The notes under the pieces: generated by a model
What the model saw: only the letters and a program-made list of their open reading frames with translations
Told to the model about the DNA's origin: nothing
Databases searched by the model: none
Program-made: the position numbers and the translations under genes
Shown here: in pieces, positions 25,851-33,746 of the stretch
Numbering within the stretch: position 1 is the stretch's first letter
Layout of the letters: every line of letters starts with the position of its first letter
Source of the DNA: Candidatus Obscuribacterales bacterium
GTDB lineage: Bacteria; Cyanobacteriota; Vampirovibrionia; Obscuribacterales; Obscuribacteraceae
Length of the DNA: 64,000 nt
NCBI GenBank assembly: GCA_019746975.1
Contig: JAIERK010000130.1
Location: 907-64,906 of the forward strand
Direction: 5' to 3'

Positions 25851-27251
25851 ATGCCGGAAGAAGATAAGGACCAGAATCTCAACTCGGCCTTGAATTTGTG
25901 GCAGGAAGGCGTTGATCAAGCCGCTGATGATCTGGAGAAGATCGTCAACAATTCCATCGAGCAGTTGATTCGATACAGCGAAGAGCTCGAGAAATCACTC
26001 GACCAACAGCTCAAGAAAATTGCGACCCAGACCTCGTCGATGGTCGACAGCAATGTTGAAGAGCTGTCCGCTAAACGTGACGAGGTGATTGAACAGATTG
26101 CCGAATTTGAGCGCAACGAGGCTGATGAAATCTTGAGAACCGCTCAAGATGCCAGGGAGAAGATCTACAAGCTGGTTGAGAGCACGAAGCAGGTTCTCAG
26201 TAGACGGCTCACCGAGGCGGTCAAGAAGTTAAACGGGTCTGCTGAAAATCCGCGGCAAAGATTTACCAATTTCACGCAAAAAAATCGGGATGCTATGACC
26301 GAGTACGCAGAGAGCGCTCGTGACAAACTGAGCGCGCAGAAGGTCGGATTCGAGACCTCATTGACGACACGATCGAAAGAGTTAGATTTGCAATCGGAAG
26401 GTGCCGTGAGTGCATCCAAGCAATCGGTCGACAAAAAGCTTTTCGAATATGAAGCAGGCTTCGACGAGAAGATTGCTCAGGTATTGTCCCAGTTAGACGA
26501 GCTCTTGATCGCGACGACAAAATCTGCAGAGCAAGCGAGTTCCGATGGCGCATCGGAACTCGAGGCTTGTCGTGTCGAGAACTCCGAATTTCTCAATCAC
26601 CAAATAATGGATTGGAAATCGAATATCGAGTCTTTGAAACACGACTTCCAGGAGGACCTGGAAAGCAATCGAGAAGAGACGCTGGCTATTCAAAGCCGAA
26701 GACTCAACTACACGGTCAGCGAGGCCAAGTCTTCCATCAACCAGGTAGCCAATGACGCACTGGCTCGAATCACCGGCAATCATCGAATGTACTATGGATC
26801 GCTCAAGCGACTGGAGCGCAAGTATGAGGACCAGGTGTCGCGCCTGATCAATCGTCTTGAATCGGTACTTTCGGAGGAGCATGAGCTCGCGGGCGCCAAC
26901 CTTGCGCAGAGCACGGATGATGTCAAGCAAAAGCTCAAATCGCAACTGAAGGCGCGAGGCGGTGAACTGGTAAAAACATACAGGCGACAAGTCGATCAGA
27001 TGGAGGGTGACTTCGCTAGAGCCAGTGCGAGTTCCTACGAGCGAATCGACAGTATCAGACTCCAGGCTGTCGAGTCGCTGGAAAAGCAGGTGCGAATAAT
27101 CAGAAGTGAACTGGATCGAGTAGAAAAATCGTTCAAGACCGAGCTCTCCCAGCTCTCGATCGAACTGCCCGAAATTGAAGAACGCGGTCGCGTGGCCGCC
27201 ATGTCTGTATCCGCATATTTGGCGTCGATGCTCACGTTGGATGCGGATTAA
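25851..27251 (+). CDS. hypothetical long alpha-helical / coiled-coil-type protein (466 aa), first of three
   Basis: A strong SD (AGGAG) lies 6 nt before the ATG. The whole protein is E/K/Q/S/L/D/R-rich with almost no Pro, and it has no signal peptide or TM segment. I recognise no catalytic or family motif. Confidence 0.7.
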   Translation: MPEEDKDQNLNSALNLWQEGVDQAADDLEKIVNNSIEQLIRYSEELEKSLDQQLKKIATQTSSMVDSNVEELSAKRDEVIEQIAEFERNEADEILRTAQDAREKIYKLVESTKQVLSRRLTEAVKKLNGSAENPRQRFTNFTQKNRDAMTEYAESARDKLSAQKVGFETSLTTRSKELDLQSEGAVSASKQSVDKKLFEYEAGFDEKIAQVLSQLDELLIATTKSAEQASSDGASELEACRVENSEFLNHQIMDWKSNIESLKHDFQEDLESNREETLAIQSRRLNYTVSEAKSSINQVANDALARITGNHRMYYGSLKRLERKYEDQVSRLINRLESVLSEEHELAGANLAQSTDDVKQKLKSQLKARGGELVKTYRRQVDQMEGDFARASASSYERIDSIRLQAVESLEKQVRIIRSELDRVEKSFKTELSQLSIELPEIEERGRVAAMSVSAYLASMLTLDAD

Positions 27252-27289
27252 ACAGGCTTAGAAGGTGTGCTAACAAGGAGAATGCAGCT

Positions 27290-31600: not shown

Positions 31601-33746
31601 ACCCGTCGACGAACCGGTGTTGGCAGGTGTCGAGAAGGTGGAGTCCGTGGAGCTGCCACCAGCCGTCGACCCAGAGCCCGTGAAGCCAGAGTCAATCACT
31701 ACCGACTCATACCTCTCGGGAGTAGAACGGCAGGTGATGCCGTCACTCGAAACTGATATGTCCGACAGTGTGATTGATAACGTGCTGGATCTGGCCGAAG
31801 CCGAGCCGACCAAAGAAGCTGATGAAATCCCGCCGACTGATGACGAGCCGGGTCGGGAGATGACTCAAGATCTAGACAAAGCCATATTGCAGAGATTCAA
31901 CCGGGGTGACAAAACATTGCCCCAGAGCGTCGCCGAAGAGCTCAGGTTCGCGCCCGAAGAAGAAGCAGTTGCCCAGGCACCGCTGACGGTGCCACTGCCA
32001 CCGCCGCCGCCGGTGGAGCAACCGGCGCCTGTAATGAGTGAAGCGACTCTCGAAATCGAGCAGGCATTGGTTGGCGATGACTCGGCTGAGAAGGCATATA
32101 CGATATCTTCTGTCACGGCTCCTATCATCACGCCGCCACCGCCGGAAGTGGCACCGTACATACCAGCTGGGCTGGCAGATCGGCAGCCGATCATACCACC
32201 AGCGCCGAGAAAGGATGAGCAAAGCCTGCTGAGCGGCTCGTACCTCACTCAGACCTCGCCTGCACCGTTAGCCGATCTCCCTGAGAGCGTCGAGGACTCC
32301 GGAGTTTTCTTGACCGAAAAACCGCAAGAGAAGAGCCCGGCGGCTCCCGCCACGCAGCGCCCGATCCAGCCTGCAATGGAGCCGAAGCTGGTTATCTCGG
32401 AATCGACCAGATTCATGGCCCGGTTGAATCAGCGTCTTTCTGAAGCAGAGAAGAAGCTGTCCAACCGATGCGATCAGTCGCGTGATCGACTGATCCGAGA
32501 GTTGGAAGCGCTGGTCGACGAGTCGCGCAAGATTGAGCGGCAGAATGAGCTGGCAACGGGCGGTTTGACTGAGAGGCTGATTGCGAATCTGGTGAAAGTG
32601 ACCGCGGATGTCAAAGCCAGGATTGCAAAGTCCGCTACTGAAAGCAGAGAAGCGCTTCGCGATGTCATCCAATCTGCAGAAGAGAGCGTTTCTGAGCTCA
32701 ACAGTGAGTTGACGCAAGAGTTGGATTCCATCGAAGAGAAGTTCAACGCTGATTCCGACGTGCTTACTGATAAGACCAGGGCCGCCCTTAATCAACATGC
32801 GCAGGATCGCATCACCGAATACAATCGCAAAGTAGATGAGATAGCGAACTCGCTGGAGTCTGTTTACAAACACCACCTCGGTGTGATGTTGACAAGGTTC
32901 AGCAAGTTCGAGACGCGACTGACTGAAGAGGTCAATGCGATCATTAGCTCACTGGACCGCAACGTCGCCTCCATGAATGTCGAAATCGACGGTTCCTGGG
33001 ATCGTGCTTCTGAAAAGCTCACCAGTAGTCAGACTGAGTTTGCAAACAGTGTGAGTTTCCTGGTTCATTCTTGCAAAGCCGAGATCAAACAGGTTCACCT
33101 GGATGCTTATGCCAGCACTGTTTTCCCGAGATTGGTGGAAAACAAGGACATATTCAGAGCCATGCTTGCAGACATGAAGCGCAACTTCGAAGAGCAATCC
33201 GACAAGATTCGCAAGCAACAGGTAGAAGGTCTCAGCTCCACGATAGACAAGGCTCGTCTCGAACTGAACACAGTGACGAGGGAGTCCTTGAGCACAATCG
33301 AGTCGGTCGGAAAAGGACAGCAGTTTGGTCTGGAAGAGTTATTCAACTCGACCTCGAAAAGATTGGAAGACATCATCGACATCGTGGAAAGCAGGCTCAA
33401 GACTGCCAAGCAAGAGATCGTCAACAACGATGAGGCTTGCATGAAGGCCTCCGAAGCTTCGCGCGTCGAGGATGAGCCTGCGTTTGCAAAAGAGAAGCAG
33501 CAAGCAATCGCGGCTCTCAACGATTGCCGCACCAAGGCAGACAACACGCTAGAGACTAGCATCAGTTCGAGCTGCCTCAACCTCGAGCACTTCAGCGAAG
33601 AGTTGCAAGAGGATCTGGCTAAGCAGCGCGCAGACTGGACCGCACAGGTTCGTCTCACGGCGGATGAAAGTCTCATGCGCGTGAAGCAGGCGATTCAAGA
33701 TGCTTTTCAGTCCATAGAGACTGAGAAAGAAAAATACATGGAATAA
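28689..33746 (+). CDS. giant hypothetical protein (1685 aa): N-terminal globular region, ~1000 aa Pro/Glu/Ala/Ser-rich low-complexity centre, C-terminal ~450 aa helical domain resembling the two preceding proteins
   Basis: It is a single uninterrupted ORF. The centre is dominated by P, E, A, S, with PPPPP runs, a (S/T)LFP motif three times, and isolated Trp residues in acidic context. From about RFMARLNQRLSEAEKKL onward the sequence returns to the Pro-free E/K/L/S-rich helical style. Confidence 0.75.
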   Translation: MHQLLRQNQVRYLDVKPYIRTFSRNNPTELGEWAKEEGGLFEPGTLIFLLEPAKRPPGMSSFARGQQPAEVAQDAFRVKDMCVVVDKIEGKCWVLAISPSAFELRFIDTLFREKSQKAFLEGLDFNYLAAQPRPPLNQAKLKELRQLSTLYSKSGSRRTVAQDGSGPDEPAKAMLAFLGADLSASVGKQVMELGSICNMIFAPESVQENKLQSMVKSCFTPILASDKLKTPPTVATKQVLESQAQMNEEVSLLTQAYLESEAKEAEDYIASQPDIENRSPAAPTPEEFKKLDVPSPEPPPGFDIVAFSPQPSKELLGGQPASLDAAPDIPMILTGEHQVVTVGDTKNGQSKKVPSLPAWYMTTHDVGEMNQVAIRRTQISPSMPEGLDKLETELSYDALPVVDTRFRESQETPEPVNPAAISPAEAAKPTFSEQFRADYDKGQAGQAAFPSVSNLFETAAPFIQEEPQEPVAWPTSDSSSTETSKSTEVPKDFVDSIFQEGGARSSLETNPDARESQIERRRRKPVQPGDWQPLSTVREPEKEDWSKDEPKGATEAARPTMDLPVDGNLFDKLAGQTSDELGQIIDQPPGWGADESSPGGVPTNLKDMLTVDSAVFSTAQPNAESGPAAVESVLSEISPSEPASPPADATNSSASDADESPDPWTKLPTKSDDRPVDSTGWQPPDSLDEVVPAAQGAAGWSALSSEGAAAEPAVSQSTSEEAKNPGDQENYKELAKALNGLMDSEAVESPAPIAAPPEDERLVDPEEPPVETPKEDDISPAAPAEESAPAVSLSTGAEPEAETAELASPEEATSGGASLEAPAAPTVASETLFPRRSVIEDDEPSPPPLATRAGGSLFPTPTSSQAESLFPRPAELAEEESEVVPYAVLPQPEAANPPLTLEEPEASTVEPILGDTVLPPQSVDAVMEVPLASGAVSSPSMERAEPVNPAALEPPNPSLIDVPPAPTAADEPVDEPVLAGVEKVESVELPPAVDPEPVKPESITTDSYLSGVERQVMPSLETDMSDSVIDNVLDLAEAEPTKEADEIPPTDDEPGREMTQDLDKAILQRFNRGDKTLPQSVAEELRFAPEEEAVAQAPLTVPLPPPPPVEQPAPVMSEATLEIEQALVGDDSAEKAYTISSVTAPIITPPPPEVAPYIPAGLADRQPIIPPAPRKDEQSLLSGSYLTQTSPAPLADLPESVEDSGVFLTEKPQEKSPAAPATQRPIQPAMEPKLVISESTRFMARLNQRLSEAEKKLSNRCDQSRDRLIRELEALVDESRKIERQNELATGGLTERLIANLVKVTADVKARIAKSATESREALRDVIQSAEESVSELNSELTQELDSIEEKFNADSDVLTDKTRAALNQHAQDRITEYNRKVDEIANSLESVYKHHLGVMLTRFSKFETRLTEEVNAIISSLDRNVASMNVEIDGSWDRASEKLTSSQTEFANSVSFLVHSCKAEIKQVHLDAYASTVFPRLVENKDIFRAMLADMKRNFEEQSDKIRKQQVEGLSSTIDKARLELNTVTRESLSTIESVGKGQQFGLEELFNSTSKRLEDIIDIVESRLKTAKQEIVNNDEACMKASEASRVEDEPAFAKEKQQAIAALNDCRTKADNTLETSISSSCLNLEHFSEELQEDLAKQRADWTAQVRLTADESLMRVKQAIQDAFQSIETEKEKYME

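Follow-up and report, generated by a model that had tools for sequence, protein, structure and literature searches.

Three adjacent genes (ORF1, ORF2 and ORF3) in a MAG of Candidatus Obscuribacterales, an uncultured cyanobacterial relative without photosynthesis, encode a conserved, Obscuribacterales-specific structural module, and the helices of the three proteins carry a hydrophobic stripe of ~450 residues with a hendecad (11/3) period rather than forming a heptad coiled coil. In the window, the whole stretch of 64,000 nt analyzed here, the genes were located on the + strand: ORF1 (25851-27251; 466 aa; MBX9669540.1), ORF2 (27290-28633; 447 aa; MBX9669541.1), and ORF3 (28689-33746; 1685 aa), with intergenic gaps of 38 and 55 nt, respectively. 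This arrangement was as described in the initial annotation, and so were the AGGAG Shine-Dalgarno (SD) sequences of ORF1 (25841-25845, +; read from the sequence, 5 nt from the ATG) and ORF2 (27276-27280, +; 9 nt from the ATG); only an A-rich leader was found upstream of ORF3. The set of three genes is real, but a fourth co-linear gene had been overlooked: ORF4 (33936-34598, +; 220 aa), an orphan protein with a predicted ADP-ribosyltransferase (ART) fold, begins with CTG 7 nt after an SD-like AAAGGA (33923-33928, +). A minus-strand ORF at 33840-34442 (200 aa) was rejected as a gene, being a shadow of ORF4. The GC content was 0.50-0.59 over the locus (with a peak in the ORF3 linker) and 0.47-0.54 in the rest of the window, and no mobile-element genes were found beside the locus.

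ORF1, ORF2, and the C-terminal domain of ORF3 were similar in length (~466, ~447, and ~457 aa, respectively), Pro content (0.6, 0.2, and 0.7 %), and net charge (-22, -22, and -20; pI ~5.0). The commonest residues were E, S, L, A, K, and D, and a GRAVY value of ~-0.7 indicated strong hydrophilicity. No 19-residue window was hydrophobic enough for a transmembrane segment (maximum, 1.1), and neither Pfam nor NCBIfam revealed catalytic or nucleotide-binding domains in the trio, in agreement with the Pro-poor, E/K/S/L/D-rich proteins without membrane segments or such motifs of the initial annotation. AF2 predicted three helices in ORF1 (residues 4-129, 135-346, and 356-465; pLDDT of 70-85) without tertiary packing (pTM of 0.21), and the model gave no matches in Foldseek. 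These results supported the view that the helical parts are extended, consist almost exclusively of helix, are cytoplasmic, and fall outside characterized families.

The profiles of all three families showed a dominant single peak at 3.66-3.68 residues. The normalized power at 11/3 was 43, 44, and 15 for ORF1, ORF2, and the ORF3 C domain, respectively (maximum in shuffles, 4-7; z = 48, 40, and 16), while z was less than 3 for all other genes of the window. The power of the heptad in the trio (~0.5) was at the random level, and a phase analysis excluded both the heptad (3.5) and 51-residue (3.64) periods; the proteins previously called coiled-coil-type are long and helical, but have no heptad register. 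The 11/3 phase remained within ~±30 degrees throughout ORF1 and ORF2, crossing the helix breaks predicted by AF2, while the ORF3 C domain contained one register jump near domain residue 235-255. The periodicity was kept in 41/41 (ORF1), 41/41 (ORF2), and 32/32 (ORF3) of the homologues examined. Stripe positions i and i+4 were 75-90 % L/I/V/F, the third position was shared between i+7 and i+8, and the polar face had an acidic center with R/K at the flanks. The per-residue strength equaled that of human apoA-I residues 44-243. Neither a tandem 11-mer sequence repeat nor an outstanding longer-period peak was found in the trio. Since the 11/3 register extends over ~450 residues, the stripe is straight, on a helix of up to ~65 nm.

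When the ORF1 family profile was compared with PDB, the matches were almost only lipid-surface proteins: ApoA-IV (2e-8), and also ApoA-I, ApoE, apolipophorin-III, SHERP, and KMP-11. Forward ORF1 matched ApoA-IV (1e-5), but reversed ORF1 did not. In Pfam, the top match for all three proteins was Apolipoprotein (PF01442), with scores (51, 27, and 24 bits) well under the family cut-off of 90, and LEA_4 was absent. The long helical tail of ZorA was weakly matched by all three (1e-8 to 1e-5), and matches in PADLOC were sub-threshold and limited to this helical tail, with none for ORF4. No confident family match was therefore obtained, and of the two guesses in the initial annotation, CCRP-like or apolipoprotein/perilipin-like, the latter was the better. 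The phrases reported to recur among ORF1-3 are present, but the similarity was within chance (pairwise BLASTP E-values of 1.7, 0.034, and 0.036). The family profiles aligned within the trio with 84-94 % probability in hhalign, whereas column-shuffled profiles gave <1 %; since reversed profiles scored like the real ones (60-94 %), this similarity reflects a shared periodic amphipathic pattern, and the proposed paralogy was not demonstrable.

The helical last ~450 aa of ORF3, noted previously, corresponded to the hendecad C-terminal domain (32373-33746, +), but the modular build of this protein had been missed. The N-terminal domain (28689-29393, +; aa 1-235) was a conserved, globular one with a pI of 8.8 and no matches to known families. 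It was followed by a disordered, P/A/E/S-rich linker (29394-32372, +; aa 236-1228) with a net charge of -122; in homologues, its length ranged between 230 and 1170 aa and its net charge between -12 and -150. The linker contained a conserved short motif, PTNLKDMLTVDSAVF (30492-30536, +; aa 602-616), found as a single copy in each of 16 species. A second short motif, NYKELAKALNGLMD (30876-30917, +; aa 730-743), was equated by eye, without an alignment, with the LA[ED]ALSGL island of 15 other species, the string ALSGL being absent from the window.

The order ORF1-ORF2-ORF3-ORF4 was kept, wherever the contig allowed, in 41 genome and ~50 metagenome loci (~90 in total), confirming the synteny that the initial annotation had suggested checking. 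The locus was single-copy and vertically inherited, and throughout the order it lay in a stable backbone of housekeeping genes, in which PDH, lipA, aldehyde dehydrogenase, and fatty-acid desaturase genes were conserved neighbors; this neighborhood may be mere phylogenetic inertia. Indels were practically absent among 41 ORF1, 41 ORF2, and 32 ORF3-C sequences with identities down to 25-30 %, and many residues, including polar ones, were invariant. The best-conserved parts were the rod ends in ORF1 (with the motifs NSALNLWQEAVEKA at the N-terminus and ELPEIEERGRVAAMSVSAY..L.L..D at the C-terminus) and ORF3-C, and the N-terminus (a Gly-containing region of residues ~1-20) and a mid-chain stretch in ORF2. 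Conserved Gly/Pro sites differed in position between the chains, and a simple in-register parallel bundle is thus not indicated. After the removal of species divergence via E3 distances, the evolutionary rates of the three helical domains co-varied with r = 0.63-0.87, as tightly as the two ORF3 domains did with one another (r = 0.70). Saturation in proteins that evolve at similarly high rates could, however, have produced this co-variation artificially.

ORF4 was represented in GenBank only by a 143-aa ATG-started fragment (MBX9669543.1), while its CTG start was conserved among homologues. ORF4 contained the motifs LYHGTNCYRRWEI ... YSFF ... EPVVLKV and C-terminal helices, and its family, with invariant H40 and E96, comprised only 19 representatives among 1.84 billion proteins. 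The top PDB matches of the model in Foldseek were Tpt1/KptA, CC0527, DarT, TreTu, 6b, and PARP14, the BFVD matches included phage DarT and PolyVal-ART, and weak sequence matches to Tpt1 and ART-PolyVal agreed with this predicted ART fold; no family HMM scored above its own threshold. ORF4 resembled Tpt1/KptA and DarT (the H-Y-[EDQ] clade) in its Foldseek probability (0.99-1.00) and invariant His and Glu, and its LYHGT motif aligned to the NAD-lobe motif of Tpt1. On the other hand, TM-scores were just 0.26-0.36, and ORF4 differed from Tpt1 by the absence of the N-terminal RNA lobe and the presence of extra C-terminal helices.

It is possible, albeit somewhat doubtful, that ORF4 stands outside the module as an ancestral neighbor of the PDH operon, potentially acting on PDH/lipoyl proteins, with the trio inserted between E3 and ORF4. 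A distant subfamily (35 % identity) had the order lipA-E1a-E1b-E2-E3-(one gene)-ORF4-aldehyde dehydrogenase without the trio, and since it adjoins PDH in this way, the link between ORF4 and the trio may be positional only. The weak rate co-variation of ORF4 with the trio (r = 0.17-0.55), the spacer of 100-250 nt after ORF3, and the separate SD were also consistent with this explanation. However, ORF3 directly preceded every ORF4 of at least 44 % identity for which upstream DNA was available, a clade without the upstream PDH operon (L016-L020) retained the trio and ORF4 together, and the trio-less ORF4s were markedly more divergent, which fits a relaxed or changed constraint after the loss of a partnership.

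We tentatively favor, as plausible rather than probable, an apolipoprotein-like coat or scaffold of fixed size on a hydrophobic surface, with ORF3 as the tether. The three chains, matched in length and charge, would co-assemble via the hydrophobic stripe, and the surface may be that of a membrane leaflet or of an inclusion made of lipid or polymer; apolipoprotein belts and the GPR scaffold of Agrobacterium provide the analogy. To our knowledge, lipid droplets are not known in Obscuribacterales. ORF3 would be a tether or hub subunit, of which the hendecad domain enters the assembly and the polyanionic linker of ~1000 aa points outward, bearing two conserved docking motifs and the basic globular domain at its end. 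ORF4, a putative ART-fold enzyme probably synthesized at a low level from the CTG start, may act as a partner that modifies or regulates the assembly.

The strict length and many invariant polar residues argue against a lipid coat, because such features are seen more often in specific protein-protein assemblies than in generic lipid coats. A lipid-free cytoskeletal rod or filament, in which the hendecad chains would contact one another via their stripes and form a straight hetero-oligomeric bundle of fixed length without supercoiling, is somewhat less likely than the coat; in this explanation, the bundles would polymerize end to end with the acidic ORF3 linker as a brush, by analogy with the neurofilament L/M/H triplet. 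The absence of indels across the order, equal chain lengths and charges, strongly L/I/V/F a and e positions, rate co-variation, and very long unbroken helices in the AF2 prediction are consistent with such a rod, and the matches to the ZorA tail represent a related pattern in the long helical region of another bacterial system. The ends of intermediate-filament rods are their most conserved parts, as in ORF1 and ORF3-C, while in ORF2 these were the N-terminus and mid-chain. However, characterized bacterial filament formers use the heptad or 51-residue repeats excluded here, the conserved kink sites were unmatched between chains, and the nearest relatives of the ORF1 profile in PDB were almost all lipid-surface proteins. 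Furthermore, a register kept over predicted helix breaks is needed by a continuous belt, but not by folded-back bundles.

Hydrophilins or LEA-group-3-like stress protectants, independent disordered proteins whose 11-mer helices form on drying or membranes, would share the 11/3 periodicity, GRAVY, and acidic charge, and Obscuribacterales MAGs originate from soils, crusts, and sludge; this explanation is very unlikely in view of the bulky stripe, strict length, many invariant residues, conserved terminal motifs, helices rather than disorder in AF2, and the lack of LEA_4 matches, tandem 11-mers, and an outstanding longer-period peak. A conflict or defense system, with ORF4 as a toxin/effector and the helical proteins as a sensor, scaffold, or antitoxin, is the most improbable: toxins (DarT, TreTu, and RhsP2) are among the closest folds of ORF4, a weak CTG start suits a dangerous enzyme held at a low level, and the ZorA tail was matched, but the locus is vertical and single-copy in its backbone order-wide, its flanks contain no mobile-element genes, its GC content is not atypical, and the PADLOC matches are confined to the helical tail.

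The design favored here is that of the exchangeable apolipoproteins and the synuclein/perilipin-type amphipathic helix. The trio shared with exchangeable apolipoproteins (ApoA-IV, ApoA-I, and ApoE; PF01442) an 11/3 register that spans the whole chain with the same strength per residue, a stripe rich in Leu at positions i, i+4, and i+7/8, a polar face that is acidic and flanked by basic residues, and a pI of ~5, and the profile similarity between them was direction-specific. It differed in its sub-cut-off scores, cytoplasmic chains without Pro punctuation or a signal peptide, ~2-fold greater chain length, and three different chains in one operon; this is a likeness without evidence of shared ancestry. 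Crescentin, FilP/Scy, and cyanobacterial CCRPs are similarly long, Pro-poor, helical, and cytoplasmic, and some coiled-coil-rich or IF-like bacterial proteins are encoded as adjacent co-polymerizing pairs; however, crescentin, FilP/Scy, and CCRPs have heptad (3.5) or 51-residue (3.64) repeats. The 11-mers of Perilipin-4, alpha-synuclein, and LEA-3 also form long helices of 11/3 periodicity, in which the hydrophobic face runs straight and which adsorb to lipid surfaces (PMC5889406), but consist of visible tandem repeats of small, weakly hydrophobic residues with a variable copy number, whereas the trio is repeat-free in sequence with a bulky L/I/V/F stripe and a strictly fixed length. LPD06283, a structural protein of lipid droplets in Rhodococcus opacus, has an apolipoprotein-like segment, forms a coat around a hydrophobic inclusion, and determines how large the inclusion becomes (PMC3902926); by description rather than sequence, this bacterial cytoplasmic protein is similar to the trio, but is short, with one ~100-aa domain. 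Agrobacterium GPR, also compared by description and not directly by sequence, is cytoplasmic with very long continuous helices and similarity to ApoA-IV, and is the scaffold of a 200-nm ring (PMC8262873). GPR is a single 2115-aa chain of Rhizobiales that has two N-terminal transmembrane helices as its anchor and scores within PF01442 (PMC8262873), whereas the three chains of the Obscuribacterales trio are soluble, with ~450 aa each, one of them bears a disordered tether, and the trio has an ART-fold neighbor. The undescribed structural system of the initial annotation thus belongs to no characterized family, but is of a kind already known in bacteria, represented by the apolipoprotein-like helical proteins GPR and LPD06283.

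Three adjacent + strand genes, ORF1 (25851-27251; 466 aa), ORF2 (27290-28633; 447 aa) and ORF3 (28689-33746; 1685 aa), had the positions and lengths described in the initial annotation, with spacers of 38 and 55 nt. The AGGAG Shine-Dalgarno sequences reported for the first two genes were present upstream of ORF1 and ORF2, and the leader of ORF3 was only A-rich, without AGGAG. An untranslated spacer of 332 nt (25519-25850), far longer than those within the trio, separates ORF1 from the upstream gene for the E3 component of pyruvate dehydrogenase (PDH), and is the probable site of a promoter or leader belonging to the trio itself. 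No Rfam match was found in this spacer, and promoter, terminator and Rfam scans across the locus were uninformative. As previously proposed, proline was scarce (0.2-0.7 %) in ORF1, in ORF2 and in the C-terminal helical domain of ORF3 (ORF3-C, the final ~457 aa), with no transmembrane-grade hydrophobic window in any of the three, no hydrophobic N-terminus in the trio proteins, and no catalytic or nucleotide-binding domain reported in them by Pfam and NCBIfam. Their pI values were near 5.0, with net charges of -22, -22 and -20, respectively. ORF1 was identical to MBX9669540.1 from a Candidatus Obscuribacterales MAG, annotated in GenBank as 'apolipoprotein A1/A4/E family protein'; ORF2 and ORF3 are annotated there as hypothetical proteins.

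The family-profile hydrophobicity of ORF1, ORF2 and ORF3-C gave a single dominant Fourier peak at 3.66-3.68 residues, corresponding to an 11/3-residue (hendecad) register. Normalised whole-chain power at 11/3 in the single sequences was 43, 44 and 15, respectively, compared with maxima of 4-7 in shuffled sequences (z = 48, 40 and 16), and the signal was found in every homologue (median power: 42, 42 and 18); none of the other genes in the window had an 11/3 signal above z = 3. On the other hand, power at 3.5 residues, the heptad (7/2) period of ordinary coiled coils, was at the random level (0.5) in all three, and the coiled-coil type originally assigned to these proteins was therefore not borne out. 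In sliding windows, the 11/3 phase stayed within about +/-30 degrees across all of ORF1 and ORF2, and ORF3-C had one phase jump, near domain residue 235-255. The 51-residue repeat of Scy/FilP has a periodicity of 51/14 (3.64 residues); this candidate was rejected because the phase drift against 11/3 was at most 40 degrees over 420 residues, while a period of 3.64 would drift by about 270. Thus, phase coherence excluded both heptads and the 51/14 repeat. Family profiles showed no dominant longer-period peak of the kind given by tandem 11/33-mer repeats.

Within the register, L/I/V/F made up 75-90 % of the residues at two positions four apart, and 40-60 % were hydrophobic at two or three neighbouring ones; the polar face was E/D-rich in its centre with R/K enriched on its flanks. 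Practically no indels were found among 41, 41 and 32 sequences of ORF1, ORF2 and ORF3-C, respectively, down to 25-30 % identity, even though the evolutionary rate of these helical domains is about threefold that of E3. An AlphaFold2 model of ORF1 (23-sequence alignment) contained helices at residues 4-129, 135-346 and 356-465 without confident packing (mean pLDDT 71, pTM 0.21), and Foldseek found no match to this model because it consists of three unpacked helices. The 11/3 register runs through both predicted helix breaks, which would be needed if the whole chain presented one continuous stripe, but not by a folded-back bundle.

The trio had been regarded as paralogous in view of similar phrases recurring among the three proteins. 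The phrases are present, but their similarity was not significant (BLASTP E = 1.7, 0.034 and 0.036). Comparison of the family profiles by hhalign gave probabilities of 84-94 %, with shifted alternative alignments scoring nearly equally; this could not be taken as proof of paralogy, since reversed control profiles gave 60-94 % and column-shuffled ones <1 %, indicating that the similarity is a common periodic pattern. Forward scores for the three pairs were 56.6, 66.3 and 52.1, against 54.5-58.2, 44.3-45.3 and 57.2-66.3 for the reversed profiles, so that ORF1 versus ORF3-C alone exceeded its control (66 vs 44-45). Although its alignment was gappy with 16 % identity, this pair hints at real homology, and a common origin of ORF1, ORF2 and ORF3-C is plausible.

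In ORF3, the hendecad domain is preceded by two other modules, and its reading frame is continuous in nearly all loci. The N-terminal domain (~235 aa) is mildly basic, with a mean column identity of 57 %, and had no match among Pfam, NCBIfam and PDB sequences. The following linker, rich in P, A, E and S, varied from 234 to 1166 aa with a net charge of -12 to -150 in 31 species. Outside two islands, it was unalignable acidic Pro/Ala/Glu sequence. The first island, PTNLKDMLTVDSAVF (30492-30536), carries the motif PTNL[KM][DE]MLT.DS.VF, which is exact in the window and is found a single time in the protein of each of 16 species. The second, NYKELAKALNGLMD (30876-30917), contains LAKALNGL, whose equivalence to the LA[ED]ALSGL island of 15 other species was judged by eye only. 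Both are candidate docking motifs, and the modular build suggests a tether or hub subunit. The linker also contains three closely spaced [ST]LFP[RT] motifs (TLFPRR, SLFPTP and SLFPRP) at 31179-31301.

ORF1 had 38 cluster-level homologues (466-480 aa) among 5.8 billion proteins, and ORF2 had 23; all named ORF1 homologues came from MAGs assigned to Obscuribacterales, Melainabacteria or 'Cyanobacteria'. With each species represented by a single genome, 41 loci were detected, and a metagenome scan anchored on a fourth gene, ORF4 (33936-34598, +), downstream of the trio, added 56. The order ORF1-ORF2-ORF3-ORF4 on a single strand was kept wherever the contig was long enough, showing the trio to be syntenic in related genomes, and nearly all sampled members of the order have retained the four-gene block, one distant lineage lacking the trio. 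Upstream lie a divergent lipA and the PDH genes E1a, E1b, E2 and E3, a block absent from one clade (L016-L020); downstream, past zero to three variable genes, aldehyde dehydrogenase and fatty-acid desaturase genes recur. This backbone of lipA, PDH genes, trio, ORF4, zero to three variable genes, aldehyde dehydrogenase and desaturase (19315-25518 and 40735-46261 in the window; loci L001-L103) is common across the order. In view of these conserved neighbours on both sides, the locus belongs to a vertically inherited backbone, in which synteny is in part a product of infrequent genome rearrangement; functional evidence from gene order alone is therefore weak. Four loci of Obscuribacterales type came from MAGs titled Proteobacteria (L011), Drouetiella sp. 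(L024), Oculatellaceae cyanobacterium (L034) and Actinobacteria (L039). The PDH genes of the first three had 54-89 % identity to those in the window, within the range of other loci, and the L039 contig has no PDH genes; the taxonomic labels or binning of all four are probably wrong. We found nothing on this locus in the literature on Obscuribacter and Melainabacteria (coiled-coil, lipid and PHA themes).

A 200-aa, ATG-started minus-strand ORF (33840-34442) had tblastn matches in nearly all related loci, but as a candidate for a conserved convergent gene it was rejected as an antisense shadow of ORF4, whose + strand location was shown by gene calls in other loci and by translation. The GenBank entry MBX9669543.1 is a 143-aa fragment starting from ATG at 34167, and lacks the most conserved part of the protein, the motif LYHGTNCYRRWEI of ADP-ribosyltransferases (ARTs). 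The codon located ~33 codons upstream of LYHGT was CTG in 57 and TTG in 5 of 77 distinct loci, and never one of the other four leucine codons; GAGGA or AAGGA precedes it by 7-9 nt across loci, an SD-like AAAGGA (33923 onwards, +) lying 7 nt upstream of the CTG in the window. Of the 57 CTG loci, 46 had no canonical in-frame start far enough upstream, and some lineages have ATG at the start position instead. The codon conservation, the SD-like site and the missing canonical start indicate that ORF4 (220 aa) begins at CTG 33936, a conserved start codon of non-canonical type.

True relatives of ORF4 are few: an exhaustive HMMER search detected just 19 among 1.84 billion representatives. In its AlphaFold2 model (16 sequences; pLDDT 79, about 90 over residues 10-150; pTM 0.64), an alpha/beta domain precedes C-terminal helices. 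The top Foldseek match in PDB was Tpt1 (E = 1.3e-3, probability 1.00), followed by KptA, CC0527, DarT, TreTu, 6b, PARP14 and RhsP2; these best matches all have the ART fold of the H-Y-[EDQ] clade, with low TM-scores of 0.26-0.36. Matches in BFVD included phage DarT and PolyVal-ART, and weak sequence matches agreed (Tpt1, E = 0.002-0.1; ART-PolyVal in 3 of 16 members). The catalytic positions of this clade are a conserved His (beta-1), Tyr (beta-2) and Glu/Asp/Gln; in ORF4, H40 and the putative catalytic E96 are invariant, and Y63 is replaced by Leu in a distant subfamily. Assignment of the ART split beta-sheet fold is good, and ORF4 represents an orphan ART-fold family; NAD+-dependent transferase activity is only inferred.

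Evidence that ORF4 belongs with the trio was divided. Each ORF4 with at least 44 % identity and available upstream DNA directly follows ORF3, and the gene stays beside the trio where PDH is absent. On the other hand, a distant subfamily (35 % identity) occurs without the trio in the order lipA-PDH-x-ORF4-aldehyde dehydrogenase, an arrangement that is either ancestral or due to loss of the trio; these loci (L045, 1-10784; L046/L103, 1-4323; L047) have ORF4 directly after the PDH operon. Furthermore, evolutionary rates of ORF4 and the trio co-varied with a partial r of 0.17-0.55, compared with 0.63-0.87 among the three helical domains and 0.70 between the two ORF3 domains as an internal reference, a measure that saturation among equally fast-evolving proteins may inflate.

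Other genes in the window include one at 34620-35708 (+) with a signal-peptide-like N-terminus and a 63-nt tandem repeat (21 aa, MMQGNQGMTQFPPMSGVPTQP) of 5.9 copies with 91 % identity at 34884-35254, for which no family match was found. Two Ser/Thr protein kinases of the eukaryote type, one of them carrying TPR repeats, are encoded along with a patatin-like phospholipase at 43713-45380 (-), 52795-55215 (+) and 46577-47698 (+), and no link of these genes to the trio locus was seen within the window.

Our tentative preference is for an apolipoprotein-like assembly, in which the three helical chains, as hetero-oligomers, would coat a hydrophobic surface or build a scaffold on it; ORF3 would serve as the tether, and ORF4 might be a modifier present at low abundance. 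The features considered for this mechanism are the three chains with matched lengths and charges, strict length conservation and co-varying evolutionary rates; a straight hydrophobic stripe, unbroken in ORF1 and ORF2 and with one jump in ORF3-C; chain ends that are conserved in ORF1 and ORF3-C; a putative tether subunit; and translation signals that are strong in ORF1 and ORF2 but limited to a weak CTG start in the enzyme-like ORF4. The main rival, a lipid-free rod or filament of neurofilament-like architecture, we consider possible but doubtful. A broader proposal, which we regard as improbable, is a lineage-specific cell-structural system not known so far: a fixed-length, three-chain, non-supercoiled hendecad assembly would surround a lipid or inclusion particle as a belt or cage, or else make up a neurofilament-like heteropolymer, with a ~1000-residue polyanionic tether organising other components through docking motifs. 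A dedicated orphan ART enzyme, its amount kept low by the CTG start, would control the assembly through ADP-ribosylation.

Obscuribacterales is an uncultured, non-photosynthetic sister lineage of cyanobacteria, and we know of nothing about its cell biology; the four-gene block provides a concrete handle on a structure that these cells build. It also bears on the role of apolipoprotein-like helices inside bacteria, of which GPR of Agrobacterium and the droplet coat of Rhodococcus are the known cases. The register of >400 residues at 11/3 under strict length constraint was the cleanest natural example found in this analysis, and is therefore attractive for structural study of straight, non-supercoiled helical assemblies and amphipathic belts. 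The orphan ART-fold family and conserved CTG initiation codon are directly testable, and correct the database annotation.

Among known proteins, the only recurrent Pfam match of the trio was PF01442 (Apolipoprotein A1/A4/E), with scores of 51.1, 27.0 and 23.9 bits, below the gathering threshold of 90 bits. The ORF1 family profile matched PDB sequences of ApoA-IV (2e-8), ApoA-I, ApoE, apolipophorin-III, SHERP and KMP-11, all of which form amphipathic helices on lipid surfaces. This match was direction-specific (forward ORF1 to ApoA-IV at 1e-5; none for reversed ORF1), and human apoA-I and alpha-synuclein had an 11/3 signature of similar per-residue strength. The trio shares with apolipoproteins the phase-coherent 11/3 periodicity (z = 16-48) of tandem 11/22-residue amphipathic helices, but lacks Pro-punctuated repeats and a secretory signal peptide. 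Crescentin-type and intermediate filament-like proteins have the heptad period of 3.5, at which power in the trio was random. Phasins (PF05597, 19.6 bits vs a threshold of 28.8; TIGR01837, 12.6 vs 94.7) and SpiroCoCo (a weak match) were below or far below threshold. Perilipin, synuclein and LEA-3 have their own recognisable tandem repeats and small hydrophobic residues, in contrast to the stripe of the trio, and neither LEA nor perilipin gave a Pfam match; stress-protectant proteins are an unlikely reading. A conflict system is also unlikely. Matches to the Zorya motor protein ZorA were to the tail region alone (17-31 bits vs the NCBIfam cut-off of 190), the trio lacks the MotA/ExbB-like transmembrane domain that accompanies the long helical tail of ZorA, and the defence-system reading was rejected because PADLOC gave sub-threshold ZorA-tail matches only.

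The view that no family could be named thus holds for each named family checked. That of an undescribed structural system holds in part: these are syntenic helical structural proteins without a named family, but related bacterial proteins are already known. The Agrobacterium growth pole ring protein GPR (2115 aa) is a membrane-anchored polar scaffold, in which two N-terminal transmembrane helices are followed by a PF01442-positive helix of >1500 aa, described as a 1700 aa helix similar to ApoA-IV (PMC8262873). The trio differs in having no transmembrane segment, helical units of ~450 aa and sub-threshold PF01442 scores. A second bacterial apolipoprotein-like precedent is LPD06283, a lipid-droplet coat protein of Rhodococcus (PMC3902926). 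The trio, although outside the criteria of each named family, appears to work like the apolipoprotein class.
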